Shown here: positions 1 to 57,624 of the stretch, piece after piece
How positions within the stretch are numbered: position 1 is the stretch's first letter
How the letters are laid out: each line of letters starts with the position of its first letter
Source: a virus
Taxonomy: Duplodnaviria; Caudoviricetes
Virus record (IMG/VR): IMGVR_UViG_3300030397_000335
Location: 1 to 57,624 of that record
DNA length: 57,624 nt
Strand: one strand, 5' to 3'
Program-made: the position numbers and the translations under genes
The notes under the pieces: generated by a model
Seen by the model: the letters and a program-made list of their open reading frames with translations, nothing else
Database searches by the model: none
What the model was told of the DNA's origin: nothing

Positions 1-126
1 CTTGGGGGGCTTTGATGAGGATGCGATTTTTGAAGCACTTTGGTTTACCAATCAAACCAGATGTGAAATACCAGGCCCCGAAGAAAATATAAGGGATCTT
101 GCCAAGTCTATTTGTAGACAGTACCC
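1..126. repeat. Terminal direct repeat, left copy (assembly overlap of a circular genome)
   Basis: 1-126 equals 57499-57624 except position 4 (G vs T at 57502); the primase ORF reads through the join in frame. Confidence 0.95.
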
Positions 127-1372
127 ACAAGGAAACGAATCTATGCACACCTTCATAGCTAATGTTATGAAAGGTGGCATCATTGAGGAGATTGAAACAG
201 AGGATACTGAACCAGAAGATGAAGCTGATGAAATCGAATTATTGCTTCAAAAGGGATTTACTGCTACTGAACTTCTAGGAATGGAGCTGCCTGACATCAA
301 GTGGGTAGTCCCTGGAGTACTACCAGAAGGTGCAACTCTACTAGTTGGCAAGCCAAAAACTGGCAAGAGTTTCTTTGCTTTGAATCTTGCAGTGTCTGTC
401 TCATCAGGTGGCTATGCGCTTGGTAACATCAAGGTTAACAAAGGAAGGGTTTTATACTTAGTTCTAGAGGGATCAAAGAAGGGATTAAAGAAGCGCCTTG
501 AGGCATTAATGGCTGGCGCAACAGAAAACAAAGATCTTCACTTCTACCCTGAATGGCCTAAAGTCGATAATGGCGGCTTAGACCAGCTACGGCTTTGGTT
601 GGGTTTCTTCAAGGATACAGAGCTTGTAATAATTGATACGCTCAAGATGATTCGCGGCAGGGACACAAATCGTAATGTTTACGAGCGCGACTATGACAGT
701 GTTAACCCGTATGCTCATTTAGCAGAAGAATTTGACACTTCTATTCTGATTATACACCATACCAACAAGATGCCGGAAGCTGACGACCCTTTCGATATGG
801 CATCGGGGTCTACTGGCTTAATGGGGGCAGTAGATCAGGGCATGGTCTTGAGGAGATCTAATAAGCATGAGGGTGTAGACCTATATGTTAGGGGCCGCGA
901 CATAGAAGATGTCGAGATGGCCATGACTTTCGATCAGCAACTTCTTACATGGATTAACCAAGGGGATTCGGCAGAGTTCGGGATGAACAACACGAAAGCA
1001 GAGATACTTTCCTGTCTACAATCGCTTGATATCAACGAGTCAATAGGCCCCAAGGAAGTGTCTGAAAGAACAGGGATTAAGTACGATCTGGTCAAGCAGA
1101 CTTTGGGACGCATGTTGGGTGATGGGACAGTGACAAAGAGGCAAAGGGGCATGTATATGCTAAACCCTGTCACTTCTGTCACTTCTGTCACTTCGTCTAG
1201 TTTTGCAGACAATAAAAAGGTGACAGCACCTCATAAAGATACAGAGCTGTCACCTTTGCTGTCACTTTCAGAATCGCCAAATAAAGCCCAGAATGGGCAC
1301 ATTTCGCCCCAAAGTGACAAAGGTGACAGAAGTGACAACCTTTTCAATCCTACAGACGAGGCCCCCTTTTGA
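2..1372 (+). CDS. Primase-helicase, C-terminal part (primase C-terminal region, AAA_25/RepA-like helicase, C-terminal winged helix); continues from 56864
   Basis: Walker A GKPKTGKS, Walker B LVIIDT, IIHHTNK and ASGS motifs; in frame with the Prim-Pol ORF at 56864, giving about 668 aa in total. Confidence 0.9.
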   Translation: MGGFDEDAIFEALWFTNQTRCEIPGPEENIRDLAKSICRQYPQGNESMHTFIANVMKGGIIEEIETEDTEPEDEADEIELLLQKGFTATELLGMELPDIKWVVPGVLPEGATLLVGKPKTGKSFFALNLAVSVSSGGYALGNIKVNKGRVLYLVLEGSKKGLKKRLEALMAGATENKDLHFYPEWPKVDNGGLDQLRLWLGFFKDTELVIIDTLKMIRGRDTNRNVYERDYDSVNPYAHLAEEFDTSILIIHHTNKMPEADDPFDMASGSTGLMGAVDQGMVLRRSNKHEGVDLYVRGRDIEDVEMAMTFDQQLLTWINQGDSAEFGMNNTKAEILSCLQSLDINESIGPKEVSERTGIKYDLVKQTLGRMLGDGTVTKRQRGMYMLNPVTSVTSVTSSSFADNKKVTAPHKDTELSPLLSLSESPNKAQNGHISPQSDKGDRSDNLFNPTDEAPF

Positions 1373-1404
1373 AAAGGTGACAATGAAAGTGACAAAAGGT
1401 GACA
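1130..1404. promoter_or_regulatory. Putative replication origin with iterons
   Basis: 13 copies of GTGACA/TGTCAC at 1130, 1168, 1177, 1186, 1220, 1248, 1260, 1314, 1323, 1332, 1377, 1389, 1399, in both orientations with 9-12 bp spacing inside clusters, at the 3' end of the primase-helicase gene. Confidence 0.8.
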
Positions 1405-1412
1405 GCTACTAA

Positions 1413-1823
1413 ATGAAACAGCTTTTTACCATACCAAAAGACCTCTGGGGGCCTCGTCCCTGGCACGTAGCGCGAATGGAGCTTCAAGGCTTCGTCAAGC
1501 AGAACCGTGGTGCCCTAGATGAGCATGAGGTGGAGTTTGCGCGCTGGCTCTACGGACACTTCGAGATGGCGGAGCATCACACGCCGCCGTGGTCGGCTAA
1601 TAGTCCGGCCTACGTCGAATCAGTCTACAACTTCATCAACACTCAGATAACAGACATGGAAAAGCATGAGGCAGCTATAAGAAAGCTCTACAAGGAAGGC
1701 ACTACTGAACCTGAAGAGATAAAAGAATCACTTGTAGCTGATGGCCTGCGGAAGTTAACCGCTGCTTACATCCGGTCTGTAATTAGAATTATCAACAACG
1801 AGCAGCGCAAAGCTGCTGCATAA
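1413..1823 (+). CDS. Hypothetical protein
   Basis: 136 aa ORF in operon context; ends KAAA. Confidence 0.75.
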   Translation: MKQLFTIPKDLWGPRPWHVARMELQGFVKQNRGALDEHEVEFARWLYGHFEMAEHHTPPWSANSPAYVESVYNFINTQITDMEKHEAAIRKLYKEGTTEPEEIKESLVADGLRKLTAAYIRSVIRIINNEQRKAAA

Positions 1824-1841
1824 ACATACGAGGCTTTTATA

Positions 1842-2264
1842 ATGGCACGTGGAATAAACAAAGTAATCTTAGTAGGCAACCTGGGACAAGACCCTGAACT
1901 ACGCTACACAGGGAGCGGAACCGCCGTGTGCAACATGAGGCTTGCCACTAATGAATCCTACAAAGACGCTAGTGGCGAGATGGTGGACAAGACGGAGTGG
2001 CACAGCATCGTGGCCTGGAGCCGACTTGCAGAGATCTGCGGGGAGTACCTGAAGAAAGGCTCTCAAGTCTACTTCGAAGGATCATTGCAAACGCGGTCTT
2101 ATGACGACAAGGACGGAAATACCAAGTGGGTGACTGAGATCAAGGCGCGGGAGATGATGATGCTTTCAGGGCGTGAAGGAGGCGGGATGCATGCCACTAA
2201 GGAGCAACCAGCGAAGGCAGCACCATCGGGTAACTTTACTCCAGACGACGATCTCCCCTTCTAG
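1842..2264 (+). CDS. ssb: Single-stranded DNA-binding protein
   Basis: [29 protein letters not shown] motifs and acidic tip DDDLPF. Confidence 0.97.
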
Positions 2265-2266
2265 TC

Positions 2267-2617
2267 ATGAGCACAGCACGCAAACTAATACTAAACCCTG
2301 TAGGCTATCCTAAGCACTTCGCCATGACCGTTGACCGTACTTGGCGTGTCAGGCGAGGTGCTGCGCCTAAAGATGGCAAGAGGCTTCACAAGATCGAGAG
2401 GTGGAATAAAGATTCAGAGCGAGAATTGTGTGTTGTCTACAAGGGTAACTTCCTCGGCTTACTGGAGAAGCTAGAAGATCTGATGGGACAGAAAGTGAAC
2501 CTCTACAAAGAATACAATGGACACATGGTTCGCATCTGCGGGGAGTACAACATCCCCCCAGACGACACCCGCACCTACGACGAATACCTGAAAGATTTAA
2601 CCGGGAAAGCAGCATGA
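2267..2617 (+). CDS. Hypothetical protein
   Basis: 116 aa; ATGA overlap with the next gene. Confidence 0.75.
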   Translation: MSTARKLILNPVGYPKHFAMTVDRTWRVRRGAAPKDGKRLHKIERWNKDSERELCVVYKGNFLGLLEKLEDLMGQKVNLYKEYNGHMVRICGEYNIPPDDTRTYDEYLKDLTGKAA

Positions 2618-2958
2618 AAGATTTACTTGAACGATGGGCAGAGACTGAACCAAATCGGTGTGAAATACACACGGATGGCCTCTACTATTCGCTTAACACA
2701 TTCCCTAACGTGCTTGTGATAGAAACAAGGCGCTGGCACTTACCGATTATCCAAGGCGCTGTCCAGGAGGCAATCGAGGCGCGGGATGGACTCCGGTGGC
2801 ATATCGGATTAGGTGGTGAAACTATTAATTGGTGGTATGCGCAGATTGACAAAGATGGTAAGGTGATAGGGTCATGGGAAGCTGAAAGTAGCAACTCCCC
2901 AGCCGAGGCCCTGCTAACCGCATATCTAAGCGCACTAGAAGCACAGGTGCCAGCATGA
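2614..2958 (+). CDS. Hypothetical protein, phage ABA-sandwich-like (paralog 1 of 3)
   Basis: C-terminal SPAEALLTAYLSALE; similar to 5751 and 6158 proteins. Confidence 0.7.
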   Translation: MKDLLERWAETEPNRCEIHTDGLYYSLNTFPNVLVIETRRWHLPIIQGAVQEAIEARDGLRWHIGLGGETINWWYAQIDKDGKVIGSWEAESSNSPAEALLTAYLSALEAQVPA

Positions 2959-3119
2959 ACAAGCTAACCAAAACGCACTACCCGGAAAGCAGGGGCAAGC
3001 GCATCGGCATGTACTTGCTAATGCTGGCTGTCTTCGCCCTTACGGCGTTCATGTGCTACATCGGCTACAAGTACGCCATAGCGCTGAAATCTGAGTACGG
3101 GACGGAGGTAGCGAGATGA
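2955..3119 (+). CDS. Small membrane protein (54 aa, below ORF-track cutoff)
   Basis: MNKLTK...IGMYLLMLAVFALTAFMCYIGY...EVAR; ATGA overlaps on both sides. Confidence 0.7.
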   Translation: MNKLTKTHYPESRGKRIGMYLLMLAVFALTAFMCYIGYKYAIALKSEYGTEVAR

Positions 3120-3445
3120 CTGACGCAGACCGCACAGCGCTCCAGGCATTCGTAGCTGGCGAGCTAAAGCCGCACGATCTACCGCAGCACATGCAGGAGA
3201 CCTTAGCCAATCCGACCGAGTACAGGGCGAACCCTGCCCACTGCTTCAAGGGGTGCAGGCATGTTGACGGGACGTTCACTCCCTACCCCAGCATCGACGC
3301 TATGCAGGCGGACTACCAGTACAGCAAGAACATCACCGGGACGGTTGACCAGTTCCGCTTCTGGGTGTGGGTGCCCGTCACGCTGGCGATGCATGGGCTG
3401 TGGCCTGTTGCTAGTGGACAAATGGAATTGAGGTTGGCGGCATGA
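3116..3445 (+). CDS. Hypothetical protein
   Basis: 109 aa; SD GGAGG; ATGA overlaps. Confidence 0.75.
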   Translation: MTDADRTALQAFVAGELKPHDLPQHMQETLANPTEYRANPAHCFKGCRHVDGTFTPYPSIDAMQADYQYSKNITGTVDQFRFWVWVPVTLAMHGLWPVASGQMELRLAA

Positions 3446-3837
3446 GAGAAAAGCATGTAAAACTATTCCCTGTTCGTGGTCAATTTGATGGTTGGCACAA
3501 CTTCAGCGTTGGGCCGCGTCCCGTCAGAGCTAAATCTGCCCTACCTTTCTTTGCAACTCGCAGAATGAGCAGGTTTCATAGGGTCAGATCACTGACCACG
3601 TTTTACCACTGGGATAAATACGATTCATTCAAAAATCCCTATGTACACCATGTCTCTGTACATGCTTGGTGCGGTCAGGCTACAAGCTTAGATAAAGGGG
3701 CGATGCTCCGAGAAGAACCACTGGATTCGTGGCCTGTGTGTGCAATGTGCGAGGCTAAAGCTATGGGTGCTGGACAGGTAGACTCAAAGACACTCACAGG
3801 AAGAACTTTAATCTTCACACCACGGAAAGCAGCATGA
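3442..3837 (+). CDS. Hypothetical protein, possible Zn-binding
   Basis: H...WCG...CxxC pattern; ATGA overlaps. Confidence 0.7.
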   Translation: MREKHVKLFPVRGQFDGWHNFSVGPRPVRAKSALPFFATRRMSRFHRVRSLTTFYHWDKYDSFKNPYVHHVSVHAWCGQATSLDKGAMLREEPLDSWPVCAMCEAKAMGAGQVDSKTLTGRTLIFTPRKAA

Positions 3838-4034
3838 AATACAACGCTCACAAGCTGAAGGCAGACCTGGCAGAGCGCTGCCGCGTGGTCATGTACGCAG
3901 ACCATGTGCGGATGGCTGAACTGCACGCCTACTACCTGTCCCTGCTGCCTAAGCGCATGAAATCCACCGTGCTTGTGGAATCACGGATTAACAACGACCT
4001 GCGGAAAATTAGACCGATGAGGAATGCGGCATGA
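3834..4034 (+). CDS. Hypothetical protein
   Basis: 66 aa; ATGA overlaps. Confidence 0.7.
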   Translation: MKYNAHKLKADLAERCRVVMYADHVRMAELHAYYLSLLPKRMKSTVLVESRINNDLRKIRPMRNAA

Positions 4035-4414
4035 ACAACCCGAACGACGACTTTTTGAAATCACTGGACGACATTCCGCCACTTGCACCCCCAATCCAGA
4101 AAGGCCCTTGGCCTCCTTATAGTCCAAGCAATGGTAGTGAAGGATGCATTTTTGAGGCAAAGTTCTGTGATAGATGTGCGCATGAAGACATTGAGACCGA
4201 GCGCTGGTGCGACATTCATACGAATGCACTTTTCTACTACACCAACCAGGAAGGCTTTCCGGCTGAGTACTGGGTGTACTTCAACGGCGAACCAACATGC
4301 CTTGCATTCAAAGACAGGGACGATGGGCTAAATGGCCGTGCGCCTATCCCCTTCGATGACCCAGCACAACTCGATATGTTTTTGGAATTACCAGTTGTTG
4401 AGGTAGCGCAATGA
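4031..4414 (+). CDS. Cys-rich hypothetical protein with a clamp-binding-like motif
   Basis: PSNGSEG, CDRC, C..C pattern; QLDMF near the C-terminus. Confidence 0.75.
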   Translation: MNNPNDDFLKSLDDIPPLAPPIQKGPWPPYSPSNGSEGCIFEAKFCDRCAHEDIETERWCDIHTNALFYYTNQEGFPAEYWVYFNGEPTCLAFKDRDDGLNGRAPIPFDDPAQLDMFLELPVVEVAQ

Positions 4415-4773
4415 GCCAGTTAGAATTACTTCCAATCAAAAGCACCATGAAGCTCAGGACGGGCAAAAGCATAACTCTTGCCCGCGCCAAAGAAGAGTAC
4501 AGACAGCTAAACAGAAAGTGGGAGAAGCATAAGAAAGAAAAACCACTGTCATCGCTTGAGCCTAAAGATCAAGCAACAAGACTAATCCTTGATGGAGAAT
4601 TATCAAGAGGAGAAGCCATTGATTTTCTAGTAAAGCGAGGTTGGTCTGAAAATGATGCGCTTTCATGGGCCCTACAGACTTTCACAGGTACCTATTCCAA
4701 CGATTCATCAGCAACAATCATCAAAGCGCGCACCCTTCCTGTGGGGCGCTCAGCACGGAGGAAAGCAGCATGA
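4411..4773 (+). CDS. Hypothetical protein
   Basis: 120 aa; ATGA overlaps. Confidence 0.7.
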   Translation: MSQLELLPIKSTMKLRTGKSITLARAKEEYRQLNRKWEKHKKEKPLSSLEPKDQATRLILDGELSRGEAIDFLVKRGWSENDALSWALQTFTGTYSNDSSATIIKARTLPVGRSARRKAA

Positions 4774-4919
4774 AACTGAATTTTGGAGAAGCAATGACAT
4801 TGATGCTTGTTGGCCTCAATGTAACAGGACTGGCAGACGTGAACTGGTTTCTAGTCTTTCTGCCATATGCATCCTATATCGGACTTTTTGCAATTGGTGT
4901 CTTAGCAAAAGAATCATGA
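4770..4919 (+). CDS. Small membrane protein (49 aa)
   Basis: Start at ATG 4770 (ATGA overlap); hydrophobic, with NWFLVFLP motif. Confidence 0.65.
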   Translation: MKLNFGEAMTLMLVGLNVTGLADVNWFLVFLPYASYIGLFAIGVLAKES

Positions 4920-5173
4920 GAAGACTAACAACCAAACAAGAGCGGGTGCTTAACTACCTGCGGCGATACATAGCCGCCCACGGCAGCTTCCCAACATACA
5001 GGCAGGCAGCGGAAGACCTAACGCTTAAGTCTCCCAACACCTACACGCAATACCTCCAAGCACTAACCCAAAAGGGCTACGTGATGGGTAAAGGCAGAGA
5101 TAGGATATTGATCGCCGATAGGTGTTGCCCCCACTGCAATGCGCGCATGAGTGTGCAGAGGATGGCGGCATGA
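4916..5173 (+). CDS. LexA-type DNA-binding domain protein with C-terminal CPHC knuckle and no peptidase domain
   Basis: LTTKQERVLNYLRRYIAAHGSFPTYRQAA...KSPNT..YLQAL.QKGY matches the LexA N-terminal wHTH; real start ATG 4916. Confidence 0.8.
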   Translation: MRRLTTKQERVLNYLRRYIAAHGSFPTYRQAAEDLTLKSPNTYTQYLQALTQKGYVMGKGRDRILIADRCCPHCNARMSVQRMAA

Positions 5174-5754
5174 AGAAAACGTGGGATGATATCGTACTGG
5201 AACGTGGGGATGTGAGCTACACAGAACCGTCCAAATTGCGGAAAGTCGATTTTCCCGCAGGCGTACGATCTGACGCTGATAGGCCGAGGAATACGACACA
5301 GCACCTCTGCGTCGATTCTACCCCCCTTAGCGTGCGCCTGGTGGAAGATCTGGATACATCCGAACCCCAACCAAAGTCGCAACTTTTCAAAGTACCTGAT
5401 ATCGGCCCCAGCCTCAACGAGTACGACCGTGCCCACTACACCCGCAGAAAAGGGTGGGTTGATAGGTGGCACAGGCTGGTATCGGTAGAGGCAAAAAGGC
5501 AGGGCTTAACACCCGTTGTTCAGTACCCAGTACAGGTAGTTGTCGAGTGTTACTTTGGCGATGGTAGAAAGCGGTTTGACTGGGATAACCTATCCCCTAC
5601 TCCTAAGCTGATTCAGGACGGGCTAGTACATGCTGGCATTCTTGAGAATGACTCGGCAAAGTATGTGGAGAGTGGGACAATGAAAGCCCTGAAAACAAAG
5701 GGAGAATCTTACACACTTTTTATGATAATTGAACCAGTGAGGCAAGCGGCATGA
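5170..5754 (+). CDS. RusA-like Holliday junction resolvase
   Basis: PSLN, DWDN...K...DGL..AGILEND acidic catalytic pattern of the RusA family; start ATG 5170. Confidence 0.75.
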   Translation: MKKTWDDIVLERGDVSYTEPSKLRKVDFPAGVRSDADRPRNTTQHLCVDSTPLSVRLVEDLDTSEPQPKSQLFKVPDIGPSLNEYDRAHYTRRKGWVDRWHRLVSVEAKRQGLTPVVQYPVQVVVECYFGDGRKRFDWDNLSPTPKLIQDGLVHAGILENDSAKYVESGTMKALKTKGESYTLFMIIEPVRQAA

Positions 5755-6161
5755 AGGACTTTAAAACTCTAATCGAAAAATGGAGCGCAATAGAGCCACA
5801 GCGGTGTCGCTTCCTTGGCACGGTCGGCATGTGGGTTGGAGATATTAAGAAGGTGGAAGATGGGAATCACTCGCTCTTTGAGTTCATTAAGTTTGGAACG
5901 TTTGAGAATGGCTTTAATGAGTATAGTGTTCAAGGCATTTTACAGAAGGCTATCATAGCACACGGATGGTACTACAACCTAACCATTGCACGTGAAGCCA
6001 AAGACAAACCGCTCACTTATGTCTGCCAGGTCTACACATGTAGCTGGGACGGACTCCACAGTGGGCAAACAACCCAAGGCCCTGCCCATGCTATGATGGA
6101 GGCTTATGTGAAAGCGCTGGAGGCTGTTAAGAAGCTAGAAGCTGAGGAGGTGGTGGTATGA
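5751..6161 (+). CDS. Hypothetical protein, ABA-sandwich-like (paralog 2 of 3)
   Basis: EKWSAIEPQRC...QG.LQ.AI...GPAHAMMEAYVKALE. Confidence 0.7.
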   Translation: MKDFKTLIEKWSAIEPQRCRFLGTVGMWVGDIKKVEDGNHSLFEFIKFGTFENGFNEYSVQGILQKAIIAHGWYYNLTIAREAKDKPLTYVCQVYTCSWDGLHSGQTTQGPAHAMMEAYVKALEAVKKLEAEEVVV

Positions 6162-6523
6162 ACCTAACAGAAGCAATGGAGCGGATAGTGGCGGTTGACG
6201 GGGAGTGGATGAAGTATAATGAGGAAGACGACTTTTACTACGTGGCTACATACCCAATTAAATTTGGATCAGACTCCCCTATGTCTATGCATGTACTCTT
6301 CGGCGCACTCTGTGAGCGGATAGAGACCAAGAAAAACTGGACTTACAAGGGTGGGTCTCGAATAGGTAGAGATGGCTACTGGTTTCAAATATTCTCCTTT
6401 GGATTGGCAAAGCTTCCCGTTCAATGCACATCGGACGAATCCTTGTGTCACGCCGCCGCCCTAGCTTACCTGGAGGCTTTAGAATCTGTTGAAAAGACAG
6501 GGGCCAAGGAGGTGACAGCATGA
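6158..6523 (+). CDS. Hypothetical protein, ABA-sandwich-like (paralog 3 of 3)
   Basis: SLCHAAALAYLEALE; SD GAGGAGG. Confidence 0.7.
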   Translation: MNLTEAMERIVAVDGEWMKYNEEDDFYYVATYPIKFGSDSPMSMHVLFGALCERIETKKNWTYKGGSRIGRDGYWFQIFSFGLAKLPVQCTSDESLCHAAALAYLEALESVEKTGAKEVTA

Positions 6524-6654
6524 AACCCATCTGGCAAATCCTCAGCGCCCTAGTCATCACTGTGGTACTGTTATTGATCGGCGGTGCTATCGACAGCCAC
6601 TACCAGGCGGTGCAGCGGATCGCTGCTCAGTGTGAAACTACTCCCCTGCCCTAG
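6520..6654 (+). CDS. Small membrane protein (44 aa)
   Basis: MKPIWQILSALVITVVLLLIGG; SD GGAGG and ATGA overlap. Confidence 0.6.
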   Translation: MKPIWQILSALVITVVLLLIGGAIDSHYQAVQRIAAQCETTPLP

Positions 6655-6671
6655 CAAAACGAGAAAAGACA

Positions 6672-6959
6672 ATGGATAATAACTTCATATCATTTAATCC
6701 TAGAGGCTTCTTGGAAGCCATTGAGTCAACAGTAGCTAATACTTTTGATCGTAAGATTGCGGACGTTAAAGCGCTAAAGCAAAAGACGTATTCCGACAAG
6801 ACGTGGCTAACTGAAGAAGAGACGGCTGAGTACTTGGGGCTAAAAAAGGGAACCCTACAGGAAAAGCGCCGAGAAGGACTTATTGAGGCCAAAAAGAAAG
6901 AGAAAAATTACTACTACCACATCGACGCCATACACGCATACATAGAATCAGATGATTAA
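6672..6959 (+). CDS. Excisionase-like HTH_17 protein
   Basis: WLTEEETAEYLGLKKGTLQEKRREG; convergent with the integrase. Confidence 0.8.
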   Translation: MDNNFISFNPRGFLEAIESTVANTFDRKIADVKALKQKTYSDKTWLTEEETAEYLGLKKGTLQEKRREGLIEAKKKEKNYYYHIDAIHAYIESDD

Positions 6960-8173
6960 TCCCAGAGCTTTTTTACCTTGTCGTCCAAGTAGTCGGCAAA
7001 GTCAAAGCCTCTTAGGTATGTCTCAGTCTGCTTAATAGACGAATGACCAAGCGCCTTAGAAATATCATAGATCGTCCATCCCTCGGAAATCAGTTTTCCG
7101 GTGATACTGTGACGCGCTATATGTGTGCTAACATTCGTGGTTACATCTGCCAGTTCCATAACCTTTTTAAGTTGATCGTTGATAGCTGCGGTTCTGGACT
7201 CAATAGCACTTCTCTTAGACCATTCATTACTTATGTCATACCCCTCAAGTGCAGGGAATATGAAACGTCCTGTTTTATAAAGATCCATTATCTCACGGGC
7301 CGGGCGCATAATGAGAATGCCGTGGTTCTTTTCAGTCTTGTCCATCTCGAATTTGGCGCGTTCATCATCCCCGTCTTTAATGATGTTTTCTGGCTTAAGC
7401 TGCAACACATCAGATATGCGAATGCCAAACATGTAGTAGGCAAACATAAAGTAGTTTCTAGCATCCCAAATAGCCGAACCTTTAGTGAGATCAAGCGCAA
7501 TAATTCTGTCGATCTCCTCTTGCTTGAGATGCTCTTTGATTACATCTTTTGTCTTCAGCTTTACGTGGAAAAACGGGTTCTTGTCCTGCGAGAATTGCCC
7601 TTCTCGGATAGCAGCATAAAGAATGGTTCTGATCTTAGAGAGATTTTTGCTTCGCGTATTGAGATTATTGCCGTACTTCTCCCTAAGATGCACATCGAAT
7701 CGCCTGAGAAACTCGGGAGTGATATCATCGAAGGAAAGACCAGGCATAAACTTCTCAAGCTTGTTAAGAACAACCGTATTGCTCTTATATGTGCTAACCT
7801 GATTTCCTCGTTTGTAATCTTCTACAAACGACCTTGCATAAGTCATAAAGTCCCCGCCAGATCCCTGAGGCTTGATTCTTTCAACTACCCTGTTTCTGAT
7901 TCTGTCGCTAGTAATATCAAGGTTCTGCTTTGCAAGCTCAGTGAATACCTCATTGGCAACCTGAAGCACAGTTTGCAGATAGTCATTAAACGAACCCGAA
8001 CCTTTCATAGATTGGCGCACTGCCCTTTTCTTGTCGTTCCAGTGCCGAGGGGCTATCTTTTTGTCAAGGGGAACGTATCTACGCACGTTTTTGTGAGATA
8101 TCCTAAGCCTAAGTGGTGCCCTTCCCTCTTGGTCTTTTTGATCCTTTCTTATTTCAATTCTAAAGGTTGGCAT
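6956..8173 (-). CDS. int: Tyrosine integrase (arm-binding, SAM-like and catalytic domains)
   Basis: GIRISD (R), KT (K), HIARHS (HxxR), LGHSS, TETY; N-terminal P..LRI...W arm domain. Confidence 0.95.
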   Translation of the reverse strand: MPTFRIEIRKDQKDQEGRAPLRLRISHKNVRRYVPLDKKIAPRHWNDKKRAVRQSMKGSGSFNDYLQTVLQVANEVFTELAKQNLDITSDRIRNRVVERIKPQGSGGDFMTYARSFVEDYKRGNQVSTYKSNTVVLNKLEKFMPGLSFDDITPEFLRRFDVHLREKYGNNLNTRSKNLSKIRTILYAAIREGQFSQDKNPFFHVKLKTKDVIKEHLKQEEIDRIIALDLTKGSAIWDARNYFMFAYYMFGIRISDVLQLKPENIIKDGDDERAKFEMDKTEKNHGILIMRPAREIMDLYKTGRFIFPALEGYDISNEWSKRSAIESRTAAINDQLKKVMELADVTTNVSTHIARHSITGKLISEGWTIYDISKALGHSSIKQTETYLRGFDFADYLDDKVKKLWD

Positions 8174-11666: not shown

Positions 11667-11722
11667 AGAGGGGTGCGCTTTTCAGGGCGCATTCGTGAGA
11701 GGGGAGGGAAGTGCTTGCAGTG

Positions 11723-39835: not shown

Positions 39836-39839
39836 AATT

Positions 39840-40799: not shown

Positions 40800-40858
40800 T
40801 GGGATTTGGTGCGTTTCGACTTGATTTCTAGCTCCCGATACCTTTCACGTATCGGTAG

Positions 40859-41173: not shown

Positions 41174-41199
41174 ACCTTCAAACCTCCTTATGGTGTTGG

Positions 41200-41430: not shown

Positions 41431-41484
41431 ACCTTCAAACCTCCATTAGTTATCCCCGCCCGTGGGATGGGGGTTGGTTATTAG

Positions 41485-47122: not shown

Positions 47123-47187
47123 ATTTCCGCTGCACTAGTATGTTAGATTTGCAGCTACAATATACGGCTTGTCCCCTAGTCAATCTT

Positions 47188-47511: not shown

Positions 47512-48070
47512 CGTCAGCCATAGTAAAGGTTGCCGTTACATCAAGCGTATCATTGTCGTCTAGCGACTTATCCCCACCCGAGAAAGCGCCAACGCTGTAA
47601 AGCGTGCCAGTCGTGCCGCTCTTTGTGTTGTTGCTTGTCAGAAACGCACCGCCAACCGTCGTACTGTTGGTTGAGCAGGTAAACGTAGCTGTTGATGCGC
47701 TATTCGTAACGCTTTGGCTCGATACGCCAGCATCTGTCCACGTAACGCGGTTTGCTTCGTCGTATGCCGTTACTTCTGTCCAGCCTGCGTGGCTAGACAT
47801 AGTATCGCCAGCGGCTACCGTTGGCGTACCGTCTGTTAGACCCACATACCATGTGGTAATCTGCGTGCCGCCTGATAGCGTAACATCTAACAAGTGATCG
47901 AGACCAGCATTCACAACGATGTTGTGGATCTCGTCTTCCCACTTGATATTCCCATCTTTATCACGGCAAACAATCTTATAATGCCCATCTACGCGGGCAC
48001 CGCTGCGTAAGCCGTTTCTTTTTGTTACCGAAGCGCCATAATCAGCGCCCGCTTTTCCATTTGCGTTCAT
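47501..48070 (-). CDS. Putative virion/tail-fibre-associated protein
   Basis: Thr/Gly/Ser-rich; N.VVN.GL..LLD, WYVGL, DTL.VT. Confidence 0.65.
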   Translation of the reverse strand: MNANGKAGADYGASVTKRNGLRSGARVDGHYKIVCRDKDGNIKWEDEIHNIVVNAGLDHLLDVTLSGGTQITTWYVGLTDGTPTVAAGDTMSSHAGWTEVTAYDEANRVTWTDAGVSSQSVTNSASTATFTCSTNSTTVGGAFLTSNNTKSGTTGTLYSVGAFSGGDKSLDDNDTLDVTATFTMADDGA

Positions 48071-50994: not shown

Positions 50995-51214
50995 ATAGCG
51001 CGCTTGCTAAGAGTGAGACGATGAATCGTCTGGCGCGCATGACTAGTGCGATTTGCGTTAGCCGCTGGGGATGCGTGCTAAGAGAGACCAGCGGGGGCGG
51101 TAATGATGCACATTAAACCCACCCCCACTATCCCAAAAGGGGTACAATGAAGTAATGAAATATACGAAAAAGCCCACACATGTTCCATTGTCACCTATAA
51201 GGATATGAGGCAAC

Positions 51215-51247
51215 AAAAAAGCCCCGGCCTTGCGTGAAGCCGGGGCT
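51215..51247 (-). terminator. Rho-independent terminator
   Basis: AGCCCCGGC/GCCGGGGCT stem followed by T6 on the minus strand. Confidence 0.75.
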
Positions 51248-51689
51248 GTGCGCATTAAGCGCTCCTATCTGATTCCTTAAGATGTGCCTGTTTACCTGCC
51301 TATGACCCACCGAATATAGGCAAGGTAAGGAGATGTGCCTTTTTGGAGATGACTCTTCTATTCCGAATTGCCATCAATCTACACACATATATCTAACCCT
51401 GCAACGCACATACAAAAGAGGGACAGAATGACTACAGAATTGTGACAAGAAAAAAGCCCGCCCCAAAAAAGAGGTAGGCTGGGTCAGCACTATTTAAGCA
51501 AATGCTTACTTGTAAAAATGTATGTAGGTCTTGACTGTTATTGTTGGTTAGGTAATATTTGATGCCCCACAACCGTTCTTAGCATCTAATTGAACGGATT
51601 TCCGTCTACCCCTAAGCGGCACAAATAGATCACAGTCTTGCGTGCCACAGAACCGTGAAAGGTGGAGGACCGATCTCCACCTGTAGCGG

Positions 51690-52670
51690 TTAGGCTCTCG
51701 GTTTAGGCTGAGAGCCTTTCTCGTTAGAGGGACCTTCCAAAGGCTTGGCATTAACCCTCAGACTGATTTGGTAGGGTCTGTCCCCCACTTTCTTCACTAC
51801 GTCTATCCTGACAGCTTCTACCGTGTCGTATCCCTCACTTGTTGCATTAAACACCATGTCTAATACCTCAAAGTCAATGAGTGATACAATAGCATCGACT
51901 AGATGCTTTGGGAGCACCCTGCCCCCACTACTATCTACGTAATTTCTTATTAAACCTTCATCGTCATTTTGGACGCTCTCTATGTGGGTAGTTTCACCTA
52001 CATCGGGTGAGACATTGTATAAAAAGGCTGGTTTAGTGTCATCCTGGTAAGCGACATTAGCAACAGCTTCAACCTGATCCCTACTTGTACCAGTACTAAC
52101 AATCGCCAGCCACCCCCCTAGCTCCTTAGACTGTACATAGTACCACGGTTTCGAACGCCACGCCAACCACATGGGAATACCGTTCGGCTCGTAGTACCTG
52201 GCTTCCAGCCTCGTTGATGGGTTACCAGAAAGCAGTGAACGCTCGTACTCTAAAGAATCCTCATTGGTGAAGACCTCACTGATCTTCTTGCCTATCAGTG
52301 GCACATGCTCTTCAATCTCGAACGTCTTTATATAGGCATCGGTAGCCAGGATAAAGCGCGCCTCCTTATCAAACATCGCAACGCTGTAAGGATTCTCAGC
52401 CAAGAAGGCTTCGTAGTACGGTAACGATTCGCCGTTCTCTAGTGGATATACCTCGCTCTCGTTCTGGATGTGTCCGAGCTGCTGCTTTGCCCTGTACTTG
52501 CCGTAACTAGCTTTTTCTATTAAACCTTCATGCATCATCCTCACCACTAGCTGTCTTACCTGATTCCCACCTATCCCCGTCGCCGCTGAAATCTGCTTAG
52601 GCGACATAGCACCTCCCCTATCAGCTAGTAGCTCTAATATAGCATCTTTGTGTGTTTTGTCTTCCTGCAT
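51690..52670 (-). CDS. Winged-helix + PAS domain regulator in the repressor position
   Basis: N-terminal wHTH (SPKQISAATGI...G.Y); PAS F...P.SVAMFD...IG....EVF...W..W...PW...GG; divergent from the early operon. Confidence 0.85.
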   Translation of the reverse strand: MQEDKTHKDAILELLADRGGAMSPKQISAATGIGGNQVRQLVVRMMHEGLIEKASYGKYRAKQQLGHIQNESEVYPLENGESLPYYEAFLAENPYSVAMFDKEARFILATDAYIKTFEIEEHVPLIGKKISEVFTNEDSLEYERSLLSGNPSTRLEARYYEPNGIPMWLAWRSKPWYYVQSKELGGWLAIVSTGTSRDQVEAVANVAYQDDTKPAFLYNVSPDVGETTHIESVQNDDEGLIRNYVDSSGGRVLPKHLVDAIVSLIDFEVLDMVFNATSEGYDTVEAVRIDVVKKVGDRPYQISLRVNAKPLEGPSNEKGSQPKPRA

Positions 52671-52697
52671 GTAACTGTTACACCATCGTTACAAGAA

Positions 52698-52741
52698 TGC
52701 TACTTGCAACTATTGACAAGTGCTACTAGCATTCGTATTAT
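52698..52741 (+). promoter_or_regulatory. Early promoter with two operator-like palindromes
   Basis: TTGACA (52713)-17-TATTAT (52736); TGCTACTTGCA (52698) and TGCTACTAGCA (52721). Confidence 0.8.
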
Positions 52742-52773
52742 GTGTCCGACACTATCAGTGACAATATAAAGCA

Positions 52774-52956
52774 ATGACACTCAAGGACAAACTAACGGAA
52801 AAGAAAACGGAGAGATTAGATGTTCGTGTCCCTGTCCACTTGATGGATAGAGTTAGGGCAATTGTAAATGCATCAGATGCTAACAAATCCGATGTTGCTC
52901 GAACAGCGCTTGAGTTGTGCCTCCCTAAGATAGAAAAGGAGTTCAACCTCGCATAA
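52774..52956 (+). CDS. Ribbon-helix-helix regulator (Cro-position)
   Basis: RLDVRVP..L..RV......NKSDVARTAL. Confidence 0.8.
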   Translation: MTLKDKLTEKKTERLDVRVPVHLMDRVRAIVNASDANKSDVARTALELCLPKIEKEFNLA

Positions 52957-53031
52957 CCTCTCCTAAATAAATGAAGCTCCAGGGCCGTCGTCGAAAACTT
53001 CCCCAGAGCTTCTGAAAACTTACATTTTCAG

Positions 53032-53394
53032 ATGAAAACTAAGCATTTATCTACGATAGACGCAACTCCCCCGGCTACAAAAAGACAGAGCGTTCTGCTC
53101 GTCTTCAAGAACACAAGATTGCCGCAGTACCCAGCATTCATGCTCCTGCGGTTCGTTCACGCCACATTCCCTAATGATAAGGCTGTCAACTACGTCGAAA
53201 TGGTTCGCACCGGACTGCGAATGCCTAAAGACCGATTCGATTTGTACGTAGCAGACGGTACGTTCGTACCTGCACCTACTACCGCCGTTCTTCTGGGAAG
53301 GGTTAAGCCCTCAACCAAATTTGAGATCATGCATAGCGAGACCTACGAGTCTCCGCGCATGGTAGACATGCACCGCTACCTCGAAGCGGCATAA
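53032..53394 (+). CDS. Hypothetical protein
   Basis: 120 aa; ends LEAA. Confidence 0.65.
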   Translation: MKTKHLSTIDATPPATKRQSVLLVFKNTRLPQYPAFMLLRFVHATFPNDKAVNYVEMVRTGLRMPKDRFDLYVADGTFVPAPTTAVLLGRVKPSTKFEIMHSETYESPRMVDMHRYLEAA

Positions 53395-53553
53395 ACACCT
53401 CTTGAAATCATGGAAGCATTACCAATGGCTACTGTCATCAGTAGCACGGTTGCCGCTGGCACTTCGCTAGTCACGCTTGGAGCAACCGCAGTCTATTTCT
53501 CGCAGCGCATTTGGCGCACGTTCACCCAGTTTGAAGGATTCAGGAGGTAGGTT

Positions 53554-53880
53554 ATGCGAATACCTAAACCATCAGAGCTTACAGGCAACCTGTTTGGCTC
53601 TCCGTTTGGCAAAAGAGAAAATGAGCAGGTAGCAAAGAACCTGCGAATCGTGGCAAAACTACGGGGTGATAATTGGCTCCCTTTCACATGGATTGACTAC
53701 ACAGAGCACTGCACACACACCGTAACAGAAAGCGAGCATAGCGTCATAAATAGGTTTGTAGATGATGATTTGCTGATAGAGCAAGAAGGAAAATACTACT
53801 TCACCAGCAAGATGATTGGATTCTATATGTACTGTGGAGAAGGAACTGTGATTGACCCTGAAAAACCAGTGATGAGGTAG
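53554..53880 (+). CDS. Hypothetical protein
   Basis: 108 aa; SD AGGAGG. Confidence 0.75.
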   Translation: MRIPKPSELTGNLFGSPFGKRENEQVAKNLRIVAKLRGDNWLPFTWIDYTEHCTHTVTESEHSVINRFVDDDLLIEQEGKYYFTSKMIGFYMYCGEGTVIDPEKPVMR

Positions 53881-53884
53881 CGCA

Positions 53885-54124
53885 ATGCACGGACAGGACG
53901 GACAATACGAACCCCCTGAGTATCCAGATGACCGCGATGAAGCGGATCGGTGGGAGTGGCTCACGACGCACAACTGCCCGATGGACGAACTGGCTTACGA
54001 TTACAGTCGCACAGTCTACGAGGATGTGCAAGAGATCAAGGTATGTCCCGCGTGCTGGGAGAAGGTTTGGAAACACGCTGGAGGCATCATGCGCCTACAC
54101 CAGCACAGCAAGATAGCAGCATGA
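53885..54124 (+). CDS. Hypothetical protein, possible Zn-binding
   Basis: CP...CPAC; SD GAGG. Confidence 0.65.
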   Translation: MHGQDGQYEPPEYPDDRDEADRWEWLTTHNCPMDELAYDYSRTVYEDVQEIKVCPACWEKVWKHAGGIMRLHQHSKIAA

Positions 54125-54321
54125 CCGAAGACGGACTCATACTAACCCTCAGCAAGAACCACGACGGTGACTGGGTTCTCAGTCTGGACGACGAGATCTG
54201 GGAGTGCGCCATAACAATCGAAGGGGTCATTGAGAAGTGGAATAAGGCGAAATCAGCCGAATATGGCACTGCTAAAGCCCCTGAAAGCATCACATTGATA
54301 CTGCCCTTTGACAATGAATAG
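54121..54321 (+). CDS. Hypothetical protein
   Basis: Start MTEDG at the ATGA overlap. Confidence 0.65.
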   Translation: MTEDGLILTLSKNHDGDWVLSLDDEIWECAITIEGVIEKWNKAKSAEYGTAKAPESITLILPFDNE

Positions 54322-54424
54322 CGACGAACAGCACGGATGCCGTGTGCTCATAGCGGTCTTTATATGGCTCTTTTGCATACTGCTCTTCATAGGCGTTGTC
54401 GTGACAGGGCTTAGTTCTTTATAA
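54314..54424 (+). CDS. Small membrane peptide (36 aa)
   Basis: MNSDEQHGCRVLIAVFIWLFCILLFIGVVVTGLSSL. Confidence 0.55.
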   Translation: MNSDEQHGCRVLIAVFIWLFCILLFIGVVVTGLSSL

Positions 54425-54432
54425 GATTGACT

Positions 54433-54779
54433 TTGGGTTGTGGATGGATCGTAGCCAGTCCAAACGCCTATCCCCGCTGGTACCGAGCGGCACAGGTGCA
54501 GAGGATGCACAACCCAATCCCATTGGAGCACCGGATACAACGAGCATCGCCCATCAGGGCCGTGCGAGTCGTAGTTCGAAGGATGGTGAATGGCAAATTG
54601 CCAACAAGTCGCAGCGAAATGCTGTGCCCGGTGCTCCAACTCTTTGTCCGGTGAATCGTCCTCGTGCGAATCTTAGAGAAGACCGGACAACACAGAAAGC
54701 GGTGGGTGATTGAGCATCACCTAAGAGCACCGCTTTGCTGATCCATAGGGGCGGGGCTTAAACGCCATGCCTCCGCCCC
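54433..54779 (+). ncRNA. Putative array of structured non-coding RNA elements
   Basis: Five consecutive closed stems of 9-12 bp, three with clear inner hairpins; no convincing ORF. Confidence 0.55.
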
Positions 54780-54798
54780 GCCCTCCTAACTGGCAGTA

Positions 54799-55059
54799 AT
54801 GCCACAAGCTAGTACAGACATGTTAACAAAGATATTCCAACACCCTGAAGCAACAGCGCTCGAAATGCAGCGGCTCCGCCGTGATAATGCGCGCTTACAG
54901 GAAGAAAACGACCGCCTATTTCAAGAAGTCCAGGCGAACCGCAGGCTTGCCCAGCTTGGCAACCAGATGGCAAACGAGCGGGATGCAGTGATTAAAGGCG
55001 TAATCGGTGATCTTAATATCGTCACCACATATGAGCTTGATAATGGAAGTGCAGCTTAG
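54799..55059 (+). CDS. Coiled-coil hypothetical protein
   Basis: 86 aa; ends GSAA. Confidence 0.65.
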   Translation: MPQASTDMLTKIFQHPEATALEMQRLRRDNARLQEENDRLFQEVQANRRLAQLGNQMANERDAVIKGVIGDLNIVTTYELDNGSAA

Positions 55060-55243
55060 CGGACTCGCCCATTTTAGCCTGCTGGTGATCGTGTTCATTG
55101 CTGGCTACCTGTTCTGCCTATTCTCGCAAGGGCCTAACGACCCGCCAGAAAACGGTGATTACCTGATGACTACCAAGGAGCAGCTTAACCAGTTTTTGCA
55201 GCGTGCGCAGGGGATGGTGACTAACAATTTAACTACAGCTTAG
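55043..55243 (+). CDS. Small membrane protein
   Basis: Start MEVQL; one TM helix. Confidence 0.55.
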   Translation: MEVQLSGLAHFSLLVIVFIAGYLFCLFSQGPNDPPENGDYLMTTKEQLNQFLQRAQGMVTNNLTTA

Positions 55244-55245
55244 AT

Positions 55246-56262
55246 ATGCAGAATTTATTTCAGAAAGCAACAAAAGAAGCCGCCAAGCTACGCATGGCAA
55301 TCAGCGGCCCCAGTGGTTCAGGTAAGACTTTTACTTCACTTGTCCTTGCCAGGGAACTTGGTGGCAAGACAGCCTACATTGACACGGAACACGGCAGCGC
55401 TTCTAAGTATGCAGACCTTTTTGACTTTGACGTTATCAACATGGATGCGCCCTACAGCCCCACGCGCTTTGTCGAGTTTATGAAGATGGCTGAAGACGCT
55501 GGATACGACGTGCTAATCATTGATAGTCTTTCGCACGCGTGGAACGGCAAGGGTGGTCTTCTTGAGATCGTGGATGAGGAGATGGCGCGAAAGAAAACCA
55601 ACAACTCTTTTGTTGGGTGGAAGAAAGCAACACCGATGCATAATGATATGATCGAAGCTATCATATCTAGCAAGATCCACATTATTGCTACCATGCGCAG
55701 TAAGCAAGAATATGTGATCGAGAAGGACAGCAAAGGGAAGACGCAGATCAACAAGGTGGGCATGGCTCCTATTCAGCGTGACGGGATGGAGTACGAGTTT
55801 GATGTGTGGGGAGAGATGGATGTTGAGAATCGAATGCTGATAAGCAAAACAAGGTGTCCACAGCTGGCGGGTAAGGTATTGCCGAAGCCAGGCAAGAACC
55901 TTTCAGCACCACTGATAGAATGGCTTAAAGGCGTTGAGCCCAAGCAGAAAAGAGAACTACCACAGCAAACCGAGTCAGCACCTACAGCTCCCGAACCAGC
56001 GGTGTCAACACCACCTTACTCAGATCAGGAGCGCACCCAGTTTCATGCTATCGGTGGCGAACTCTATGGTAGTCAGTGGGATGAGAAGCGCCGCAATCTT
56101 GTGAAGCATGCAAGCAATGAAAGAACCGACTCCATGAAGGAACTGACTGCCGAGGAGTTTCAGCGCATATTTGCGGGATTGAAAAAGAGACAGCAGGAAG
56201 CTAAGAAGCCGCAAACCAAAGGCGAGGTGAGTGAAGCGCTATACAGCAGGCAAGCGGCATGA
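55246..56262 (+). CDS. AAA_24 ATPase (Sak4-like recombinase family)
   Basis: GPSGSGKT, IDTE, IIDSLSHAW, EYEFD, KTR. Confidence 0.85.
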   Translation: MQNLFQKATKEAAKLRMAISGPSGSGKTFTSLVLARELGGKTAYIDTEHGSASKYADLFDFDVINMDAPYSPTRFVEFMKMAEDAGYDVLIIDSLSHAWNGKGGLLEIVDEEMARKKTNNSFVGWKKATPMHNDMIEAIISSKIHIIATMRSKQEYVIEKDSKGKTQINKVGMAPIQRDGMEYEFDVWGEMDVENRMLISKTRCPQLAGKVLPKPGKNLSAPLIEWLKGVEPKQKRELPQQTESAPTAPEPAVSTPPYSDQERTQFHAIGGELYGSQWDEKRRNLVKHASNERTDSMKELTAEEFQRIFAGLKKRQQEAKKPQTKGEVSEALYSRQAA

Positions 56263-56867
56263 CAAAAAAAGAGGAGATTGATAAGGCCAAAGAATCAGAT
56301 AGACATCTCTTATCCGCAAGGGTATCCCATCTCTACGGGGTGCCAGAAAGTGAAATACAAAAGATGGTTTCAGACACTCTTTCTAAATATTTCCATGTCA
56401 GACGTGAAGTACTGAGTGAAGATGGATCAAGCCGGATTGATGTGATTGCAGTACATAAATCGGACAATAATGGCAATTTTCCTATAGGGATTGAGATTAA
56501 AGCGGTTGGTAAAAAGCGTGGTGTTGAAATAGGCGATTGGATAAACCAAGCATATAAGTATAGTCAACTTCCTTTCAGAGGCTTTGGTAAAGTTGCAGTC
56601 TTTCTCTTTCCACAAATAAGCGGTCTTTATTTAGAAGAAGGATCTGAAGTGTCTAGACACAACTTGACTGGACGCCAAATATGGGAAGGCGGGCATCACA
56701 ATGTAGCTACTATGCTTAGTAGCTTTGACCTTGGTGAATTGCAATTCTACAAGACATGGAAGGGAAAGTGGAGATTGAGGCTGGTTTATGCCGCAAAAAG
56801 AATATGGGAACAGCACAATGACATCTTTCAGCCTAACAATCTTACTAACCTTAAGAAGGCAGCATGA
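56259..56867 (+). CDS. Putative PD-(D/E)XK nuclease
   Basis: REV...RID...GIEIK...QA..Y. Confidence 0.65.
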   Translation: MTKKEEIDKAKESDRHLLSARVSHLYGVPESEIQKMVSDTLSKYFHVRREVLSEDGSSRIDVIAVHKSDNNGNFPIGIEIKAVGKKRGVEIGDWINQAYKYSQLPFRGFGKVAVFLFPQISGLYLEEGSEVSRHNLTGRQIWEGGHHNVATMLSSFDLGELQFYKTWKGKWRLRLVYAAKRIWEQHNDIFQPNNLTNLKKAA

Positions 56868-57624
56868 GCGCAGAGAAGAAAATATCATTTAAGTCGGAAG
56901 CACAGGCCCTCGCTAAAAGAGGCATCCATGTGTTTCCGATTAAGCCGAGAAGCAAAGACCCTCTTGGACAGCTTGTACCACATGGATGCCTTGATGCTAC
57001 AACAAACCCTACAAAAATTGGGGATTGGTGGTTTGCAATCCCTTCAGCTAACATCGGGATTGCTACTGGAGAAAAAAGTGGATTCTTTGTAGTTGATGTC
57101 GATCCCAAGAATGGTGGTGACGAAAGCTTTAAAGACCTTGTTCAAAACATTGGAAGCTTTAGGGGTACACTTACTGCAAGAACTGGATCAGGAGGTTTTC
57201 ACTATCTATACAAAATGCCCGAAAAGGGCGATATAAGGAATAGTGCAGGCAAGATTGCCCCTGGAATCGACATTCGCGGAACAGGTGGCTACATAGTAGC
57301 TCCACCATCCATCCATCCTAACGGGAATGTTTATGAATGGATCAATGACAAGCCGATAGCTGATGCACCTCTGCCCTTACTAGATCTGATAAGCGAGAAA
57401 AGAAAAGCTAAAAAAGATCTAGTCAGACTTAAAGATGGTGATATGCTAGTTCATGGCGTGCAGCATGACACCCTCTTTTACATGGGAAGCACGATGCGCT
57501 TTGGGGGCTTTGATGAGGATGCGATTTTTGAAGCACTTTGGTTTACCAATCAAACCAGATGTGAAATACCAGGCCCCGAAGAAAATATAAGGGATCTTGC
57601 CAAGTCTATTTGTAGACAGTACCC
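56864..57624 (+). CDS. Primase-helicase, N-terminal Prim-Pol domain (absent from the ORF track; wraps to 1372)
   Basis: VFPI, ATT, NIGIATG, VVDVD, RTGSGGFH, GIDIRG.GGYIVAPPSIHP.G..Y.W. Confidence 0.93.
   Translation, partial: MSAEKKISFKSEAQALAKRGIHVFPIKPRSKDPLGQLVPHGCLDATTNPTKIGDWWFAIPSANIGIATGEKSGFFVVDVDPKNGGDESFKDLVQNIGSFRGTLTARTGSGGFHYLYKMPEKGDIRNSAGKIAPGIDIRGTGGYIVAPPSIHPNGNVYEWINDKPIADAPLPLLDLISEKRKAKKDLVRLKDGDMLVHGVQHDTLFYMGSTMRFGGFDEDAIFEALWFTNQTRCEIPGPEENIRDLAKSICRQY
57499..57624. repeat. Terminal direct repeat, right copy
   Basis: Matches 1-126 with one mismatch. Confidence 0.95.

Follow-up and report, generated by a model that had tools for sequence, protein, structure and literature searches.

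The window analyzed here is the whole of IMG/VR virus record IMGVR_UViG_3300030397_000335, a stretch of 57,624 nucleotides (nt) from a member of the Caudoviricetes (Duplodnaviria). Toward its 3' end lies a leftward gene for a 326-amino-acid (aa) protein, referred to below as the regulator, which is divergent from an early promoter heading the genes for a probable ribbon-helix-helix (RHH) protein of 60 aa, an AAA_24 protein, a PrimPol-helicase, SSB, and Xis (table 1). In the regulator, an N-terminal winged helix-turn-helix (wHTH) is followed by a PAS domain and by a C-terminal domain (CTD) specific to its family, and the 103-bp spacer that separates its gene from the RHH gene (52671–52773) holds two predicted promoters and several palindromes. 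We propose that these elements may constitute the lysis–lysogeny switch of the phage, with the regulator in the place that CI occupies in lambda.

Domain Architecture of the Regulator

The N-terminus of the regulator is an IclR/MarR-like winged helix by both profile and fold. Residues 7–58 match PF24034 at 29.8 bits (cutoff 27.6) and HTH_IclR (PF09339) at 28.2 bits (cutoff 22), and the segment, modeled with a per-residue confidence (predicted local distance difference test, pLDDT) of 90–97, superposes on MarR, ArsR, and Z-alpha winged helices with VIA-align Z scores of 9–10. PHROG families annotated as “transcriptional regulator” match the regulator at 9.5e-6 and weaker, and weak RepL and DnaD_N-type matches are present among the winged-helix matches of the protein family described below. 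Pfam returned neither an HTH_3-type (XRE) nor a Peptidase S24 match in the regulator, and the nine Pfam families listed for it at E ≤ 1 do not include an IclR effector-binding domain.

Residues ~80–205 clearly form a true PAS domain, based on sequence (by way of the family) and on fold. The single sequence stays below the Pfam cutoff (PF00989, 13.4 vs. 22.6 bits, E = 0.083), but a profile of seven family members matches 3luq, a crystal structure of a PAS domain, at E = 8.2e-15, and PAS_4 is matched by three of the seven members (best 3e-15). Querying 1.84 billion representatives with the regulator, phmmer found 934 proteins at E ≤ 1e-3, 23 of them at E ≤ 1e-10; nearly all of the best 150 of these 934 align over residues ~80–205 and are long proteins with up to seven matched stretches. 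An AlphaFold2 model built from a 19-row alignment has a pLDDT of 86–96 over residues 81–200 (a model from the single sequence, at pLDDT 40.6, was not usable). With this model Foldseek places 3luq at the top (TM-score 0.73, root-mean-square deviation [rmsd] 3.0–3.4), followed by BvgS, Rv1364c, EcDOS, Aer2, and the VqmA PAS domain. VIA-align superposes the PAS fold on 3luq (Z 10.5, rmsd 2.9, 110 residues aligned) and on VqmA-Phage of phage VP882 (PDB 7dwm; Z 11.2, rmsd 2.8, 118 aligned, 10% identity), these and other rows being tied within 1 Z. The translation contains no cysteine, which excludes a LOV-type adduct or a thiol switch, and no cofactor motif is recognizable in the sequence, for which, beyond cysteine, no dedicated motif assessment was made. 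The third domain (residues ~205–326) has no Pfam match, gives no Atlas lead (best score 0.89, TM ≤ 0.37), and is poorly modeled (pLDDT 28–51).

An earlier reading made from the sequence alone (hereafter the sequence-only reading) had proposed this order of wHTH, PAS, and a third domain, with neither an XRE HTH nor S24. Pfam, profiles, and fold agree with it. It had named a failed profile search as grounds for refuting the PAS match; the single sequence did fall short of the Pfam cutoff, but all deeper comparisons upheld the domain.

A Rare Protein Family

In a protein space of roughly 15 billion sequences the family has ~7 members of full length, and cultured phages carry none of them. Six relatives found by exhaustive search (P0002, P0003, P0005, P0038, P0058, and P0078) share more than the PAS domain with the regulator, each belonging to a cluster of one or two sequences and encoded on metagenome contigs of 2.4–11.9 kb. 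The closest, P0002, is a full-length relative (36% identity, E = 9e-46), as is P0003 (E = 8e-27), and the start codon of the regulator agrees with both in the alignment. A word-based search of 5.8 billion clusters returned the regulator itself only; with the family profile it returned five proteins, the additions being three short proteins only. No match was obtained by tblastn with the regulator and two relatives against 50,697 phage records.

One of the seven members carries an HTH_3 (XRE-type) domain that replaces the winged helix on the same PAS–CTD body; from a reading of its sequence this member appears to be P0005. Such an exchange is what a repressor scaffold would be expected to show.

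Control Region

The early promoter is the best of eight promoter-like sites in 50900–53200, and its −10 box overlaps that of the possible regulator promoter on the opposite strand, as both are predicted. Two copies of an 11-bp palindrome (TGCTAnTAGCA), designated candidate operators A1 and A2, lie 23 bp apart and bracket the −35 box of the early promoter. Only one other copy with at most one mismatch exists in the whole window, at 48117. A perfect 5-N-5 palindrome with a second near-copy within 103 bp was found in 0 of 2858 other genome windows and in 4 of 20,000 shuffles of the region; even one perfect 5-N-5 palindrome is present in just 168 of the 2858. All repeated palindromes are on the early promoter, with none upstream of 50994.

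The spacer also contains two perfect palindromes of other classes. One, TGTAACTGTTACA, overlaps the regulator start codon and is the sole match with fewer than two mismatches in the window, and the other, GTGTCCGACAC, is the sole exact copy in the window and covers the predicted early transcription start, raising the question of whether it might be a site for the RHH protein. Three palindrome classes in 103 bp would be in keeping with control by more than one DNA-binding protein.

An intrinsic terminator lies ~440 nt beyond the regulator stop codon, ahead of a gene for a 974-aa LamG protein, and recurs in the fold of the regulator 3' tail. This tail (51210–51690, minus strand) comprises ~480 nt without a credible open reading frame (ORF). 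Folding predictions give this tail more structure than usual (z −3.05, with 0 of 100 shuffles folding as well), and it has no Rfam match.

Dimer Model

Modeled as a homodimer, the regulator reached an ipSAE of 0.50 (0.45, 0.54, and 0.50 in individual runs) as against 0.00 for the best of three controls, with contacts agreeing in at least 42% and a partner pLDDT of at least 61. In calibration the dimer mark was reached by 20 of the 30 solved homodimers and by only 1 of the 23 monomers, counts that hold only roughly here, the dimer having been folded with our own alignment (A3). The predicted interface is formed by the PAS N-cap helix (82–99), the PAS sheet (172–206), and the CTD (253–311). The model thus supports a symmetric dimer suited to palindromic sites, and a role of the CTD in the dimer interface is plausible. 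Because the PAS domain lies in the predicted interface and the PAS domain of VqmA is required for dimerization (PMC8284805), the PAS domain of the regulator may serve as an oligomerization module only.

The Small Partner Protein

Profile matches of the 60-aa protein are weak: CopG_antitoxin at E = 0.065 is below the Pfam cutoff, a PHROG “transcriptional repressor” family matches at 0.005 and an Arc-like one at 0.054, and its profile has 0 matches in the PDB. By Atlas feature score (0.94, with 176–178 shared features) it resembles CopG-like, YlcI/YnfO, and RHH_1 clusters. Its only relative, P0153 (71% identity by BLASTP, 73% by MAFFT), keeps the strand–helix–helix pattern and the RLDVRVP strand motif. 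We consider the protein a probable RHH protein. Since P0153 and the regulator relative P0002 are each on a single ENA contig of 8020 nt, the regulator–RHH pair is probably conserved.

Lifestyle and Other Candidate Repressors

Judged by its gene content, the phage is temperate, since it encodes an integrase and an Xis-like protein. We scanned 108 ORFs with Pfam, among them 98 of 99 greedy ORF calls (the exception runs antisense to the RHH gene), and found no XRE-type CI and no Peptidase_S24 among them; three alignment-mode Pfam scans, complete at E ≤ 0.01, returned 10, 4, and 12 families. The sole HTH_3 match (E = 3.4e-4) was to a TerS-like ORF beside TerL (34765–35133), which was rejected as an XRE regulator. 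In these respects the sequence-only reading is upheld, both where it had the regulator gene divergent from a strong early promoter and where it saw no canonical CI elsewhere. Its designation of the first early gene as RHH stands as probable.

Late in the early operon is a gene for an 86-aa protein consisting of a LexA DNA-binding domain (DBD) only, which may provide a link to LexA/SOS circuitry. Beside the integrase is a second divergent pair of ORFs, of 81 aa (8952–9197, minus strand) and 73 aa (9256–9477, plus strand), with a promoter-like site at 9280–9251 (10/12). Neither ORF has a Pfam match and the 81-aa ORF has no credible PDB match; the two are possibly an unrecognized regulatory pair.

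A Candidate Lysogeny Switch

We propose that the regulator is a one-component transcription factor acting as a homodimer, in which the PAS domain and the CTD would hold the two chains together and the N-terminal winged helices would bind the A1 and A2 palindromes. With these sites occupied, the RHH gene, the replication genes, and Xis would be silenced, and lysogeny would be maintained as it is by lambda CI; the 60-aa RHH protein would correspond to Cro. A role in maintenance is suggested by the position of the gene and by the predicted operators. We regard this assignment, a CI-analogous repressor of the early promoter that acts as a dimer on paired palindromes with an RHH protein in the part of Cro, as evenly poised between right and wrong.

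Several observations weigh against it. A1 and A2 are downstream of the regulator's only plausible promoter, so that the regulator would also shut off its own promoter, a negative autoregulation unlike the behavior of lambda PRM, and both operators are themselves predicted candidates. No relative locus was found in viral, metagenome, or genome contigs with family-alignment or single-member queries. No induction route is visible, the scanned ORFs encoding neither an S24 domain nor an antirepressor family, and the LexA-DBD-only protein recalls GIL01, a phage without a repressor of its own. Many small ORFs lack a family match, and since these include the divergent pair beside the integrase, it is possible that an unrecognized small repressor is encoded elsewhere in the genome. 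CheckV, moreover, estimates the completeness of the record at 69%, though its reading frame closes over the ends.

Some of these points would suit an accessory role, in which the regulator, like VqmA-Phage, would respond to a cue received by its PAS domain by activating, or otherwise modulating, its own gene or the early promoter, and lysogeny would be kept by an unrecognized small phage protein or by host LexA with a phage cofactor, as in GIL01. The only printed precedent that we found is a PAS-bearing phage transcription factor activating lysis, and A1 is centered near −45 of the early promoter, which on our own reading is a class-I activator position. A LexA-DBD-only gene stands in the early operon as in GIL01, whose lysogeny rests on host LexA, and small ORFs without assignment adjoin the integrase. 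A2, however, fills the spacer between the −35 and −10 boxes, which is a repressor position, an early promoter so near consensus (11/12) should not need an activator, and the gene occupies the classical CI slot in a genome whose 108 scanned ORFs include no antirepressor or other repressor family. On this evidence we find an accessory role somewhat unlikely. We consider it very unlikely that the regulator has no part in the lysis–lysogeny decision and controls host genes in lysogenic conversion or the adjacent LamG cluster as a late-module regulator. Its gene precedes the minus-strand block beginning at 50994 and shares its strand, other sensory morons are present in the phage (ETR1_N and TM-PAS, see below), and the nearest matches of the PAS domain are PAS repeats in long cellular sensor proteins. 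Yet a strong terminator separates the regulator from the LamG gene, the repeated palindromes are confined to the early promoter, and the partner RHH gene seems to move together with the regulator. The weak RepL and DnaD_N-type matches in the family, together with three different perfect palindromes within 103 bp beside replication genes, could also mean that the regulator is not a transcription factor, its winged helix serving in packaging, in partition, or in binding a replication origin and the palindromes being an iteron-like element or an origin; this we think highly improbable, as the best winged-helix matches are regulators (IclR, MarR, and the PHROG “transcriptional regulator” families), the sites coincide with promoter elements, and PrimPol-helicase, SSB, and AAA_24 are encoded separately.

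If the regulator is a CI-analogous repressor, it could in addition be a sensor. A signal bound or perceived by the PAS domain (a small molecule, the redox state, oxygen, or a bound chromophore) would alter the geometry of the dimer and release the operators, and induction would be gated by the host environment rather than by RecA-driven cleavage or an antirepressor. That the master lysogeny repressor is itself a PAS sensor of this kind seems to us unlikely. The sequence-only reading had suggested a decision responding to a small molecule instead of SOS, and no result came out in its support: the regulator has no cysteine, its PAS domain lies in the dimer interface, and the phage has a LexA-DBD-only gene. 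The regulator is real and rare, and sensing, its most interesting property, is unproven.

Should the proposed switch be correct, it would be compact and self-contained, with a repressor that bears a sensor-type domain, a design without printed precedent in the literature searched. It would offer a testable case of SOS-independent prophage induction in an aquatic phage, as well as a small orthogonal repressor–operator pair. With a sensing repressor in addition to the ETR1_N and TM-PAS proteins, the phage would possess its own small sensory network. If the PAS domain serves dimerization alone, the regulator would be one more noncanonical repressor fold, of an ordinary kind.

Genome Context

The record is classed as linear and is probably a circularly permuted, essentially complete genome. 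This is suggested by a frame that stays open over its ends and by contigs from three public runs, which reach 1157 nt beyond base 1. A PrimPol gene (56864–57622; PF09250, E = 4e-45) runs off the 3' end in the frame of an AAA_25 helicase ORF starting at base 2, giving 710 codons open across the record ends and a PrimPol–AAA_25 primase–helicase gene split between 56864–57624 and 1–1372. The sequencing runs matching the record are three DNA runs of one aquatic-metagenome study, each a possible source, and no RNA run containing the sequence is listed among them. A variant without most of ORF 3442–3837 is represented by one X2 contig, in which 577 nt (3409 to 3987) are skipped; X2 is one of these runs. 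Word depth is ~2×–4× over 5.4–7.2 kb in all three runs, as if this module were common to other genomes in the sample. No interpretable integration junction was seen with run contigs aligned on 1–12000. ARAGORN found 0 tRNAs and Rfam 0 matches in the window, and megablast of 45000–57624 against phage records gave no match.

The structural and packaging genes are on the minus strand, in a block whose TerL has its best matches (41–45% identity) in phages of Proteobacteria. The first gene of this block after the regulator (48070–50994, minus strand) encodes the 974-aa LamG protein. Laminin_G_3 (concanavalin-like) is matched in three stretches of this protein (E = 2e-30), and short repeats rich in Ala, Gly, Asp, and Thr follow one another at its C-terminus. 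Inside the block is an accessory island (39176–42657), the TnpB of which is ~50% identical to its best plasmid matches; these are of mixed origin, with cyanobacteria accounting for 6 of the 12 matches listed.

At the tail end of the late block are two moron-like sensory genes, the presence of which had been pointed out in the sequence-only reading and is confirmed here. The ETR1_N gene overlaps the start of the transmembrane-PAS (TM-PAS) gene by 4 nt, and its product has a Cys-x3-His pair in a predicted membrane helix, as we take ETR1 to have in that helix. A literature search for an ethylene-binding domain in a phage found nothing.

Table 1. Coordinates of genes, domains, and predicted sites in the 57,624-nt window
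Feature	Position	Strand	Remarks
Early operon, continued	1..6959	+	PrimPol-AAA_25 helicase part, SSB, LexA-DBD-only, Xis-like HTH_17
LexA-DBD-only protein, 86 aa	4913–5173	+	E 1.5e-14; late in early operon
Xis-like HTH_17 protein	6672–6959	+	Early operon
Tyrosine integrase	6956..8173	-	Arm-DNA-bind_5, SAM_5, and catalytic domains; converges on early operon
TM-PAS protein, 209 aa	12943–13572	-	PAS_4 E 9e-5; hydrophobic segments flank both ends
ETR1_N protein, 164 aa	13569–14063	-	Ethylene-receptor-type N-terminal membrane domain, E 5e-20
Minus-strand block	50994 down to 10135	-	TerS-like, TerL, P22-type coat protein, minor-tail/tape-measure protein, amidase, beta-helix protein
DUF3223 protein	39176–39862		Accessory island
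Second tyrosine integrase	39840–40799		Accessory island
IS605-type TnpB	41518–42657	Opposite to minus-strand block	Accessory island
Intrinsic terminator, regulator transcript	51210..51247	-	11-pair stem, 8 GC pairs, then TTTTTTGTT
wHTH-PAS-CTD regulator gene	51690..52670	-	326 aa; candidate CI-analogous repressor
Family-specific C-terminal domain, aa 205–326	51693..52058	-	Kept in 7/7 members
PAS domain, aa 82–200	52071..52427	-	phmmer, family profile, fold
Winged helix-turn-helix, aa 7–61	52488..52652	-	Pfam above cutoff, fold
13-bp perfect palindrome TGTAACTGTTACA	52670..52682	.	Overlaps regulator start codon; second candidate-site class
Candidate operator A1, TGCTACTTGCA	52698..52708	.	One mismatch from palindrome; 5 bp upstream of −35 box
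Early promoter (PR analogue)	52713..52741	+	TTGACA-17-TATTAT, 11/12 sigma-70 consensus
Candidate operator A2, TGCTACTAGCA	52721..52731	.	Perfect 5-N-5 palindrome; early-promoter −35/−10 spacer
Possible regulator promoter	52737..52764	-	TTGTCA-16-CATAAT, 10/12, consensus match only
Perfect palindrome GTGTCCGACAC	52742..52752	.	Over predicted early transcription start; third candidate-site class
Probable ribbon-helix-helix protein, 60 aa	52774..52956	+	First early-operon gene; Cro analogue by position
Early operon	52774 -> across ends -> 6959	+	RHH-like gene first
Early operon, first part	53032..57624	+	Small ORFs of no assigned family, AAA_24/Sak4-like ATPase, PrimPol start

Comparison with Known Switches

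In the arbitrium system of SPbeta-like phages, the phage regulator AimR binds the signal itself and sets the lysis–lysogeny decision. AimR consists of an HTH with TPR repeats, binds a phage-made peptide, and is not a maintenance repressor; to our knowledge it has no homology to the 326-aa regulator.

The IclR regulators TtgV, PcaR, and HmgR resemble the regulator in their layout, an IclR-type winged helix at the N-terminus and then an alpha-beta sensor of PAS/GAF-like type, and match it over the full length (Foldseek E 4e-5 to 3e-4; VIA-align Z 9–10.2). The overall superposition is nevertheless poor (rmsd 6.5–16). The phage protein also differs in lacking the IclR effector domain, in having as its sensor a canonical PAS domain related to histidine-kinase PAS repeats, and in its extra C-terminal domain.

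VqmA-Phage is, like the regulator, a phage-encoded transcription factor with a PAS domain. A literature search for PAS proteins in phage lysis–lysogeny, supplementary files not covered, returned VqmA-related work only (PMC8284805, PMC12802170), and a cyanophage-oriented one brought up nothing relevant. In VqmA-Phage the PAS domain is the part that binds DPO, and the gene activated is that of the antirepressor, qtip (PMC8284805); the sequence-only reading, which cited this protein as a precedent acting through an antirepressor, had described it correctly. The two proteins are built differently: in VqmA the PAS domain precedes a C-terminal LuxR-type HTH, whereas the regulator has the reverse order, a winged helix as its DNA-binding domain, and an additional domain, and VqmA chains match the family profile weakly, in the PAS part (E 0.45–0.48). 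VqmA-Phage is homologous to a quorum-sensing receptor of the host whose ligand, DPO, is known, and a separate repressor operates alongside it; in the phage studied here neither an antirepressor nor a separate repressor is visible.

GIL01 has no repressor of its own, and its lysogeny depends on host LexA, which according to PMC6182141 forms the switch together with gp7, the LexA homologue gp6 (LexA-DBD only) being an activator of late genes. The 86-aa LexA-DBD-only protein parallels gp6 as so described, but the phage studied here has a dedicated regulator candidate at the switch.

The closest likeness in layout is to lambda CI/Cro. In both, the regulator is encoded leftward, opposite a strong early promoter that points rightward, a small DNA-binding protein comes first in the operon and is followed by replication genes, and repeated symmetric sites overlap the promoter, the regulator here being a predicted dimer. 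The components differ. CI has an XRE helix-turn-helix where the present regulator has a winged helix, oligomerization here would fall to the PAS and family-specific domains, the small partner is RHH-like rather than Cro-fold, and occupied sites would close the predicted promoter of the regulator gene as well. The regulator has no S24 self-cleavage domain, and hence no RecA-driven route of induction. By this analogy the switch would work as CI/Cro does, with a regulator that has neither of the two features defining CI, the XRE HTH and S24.

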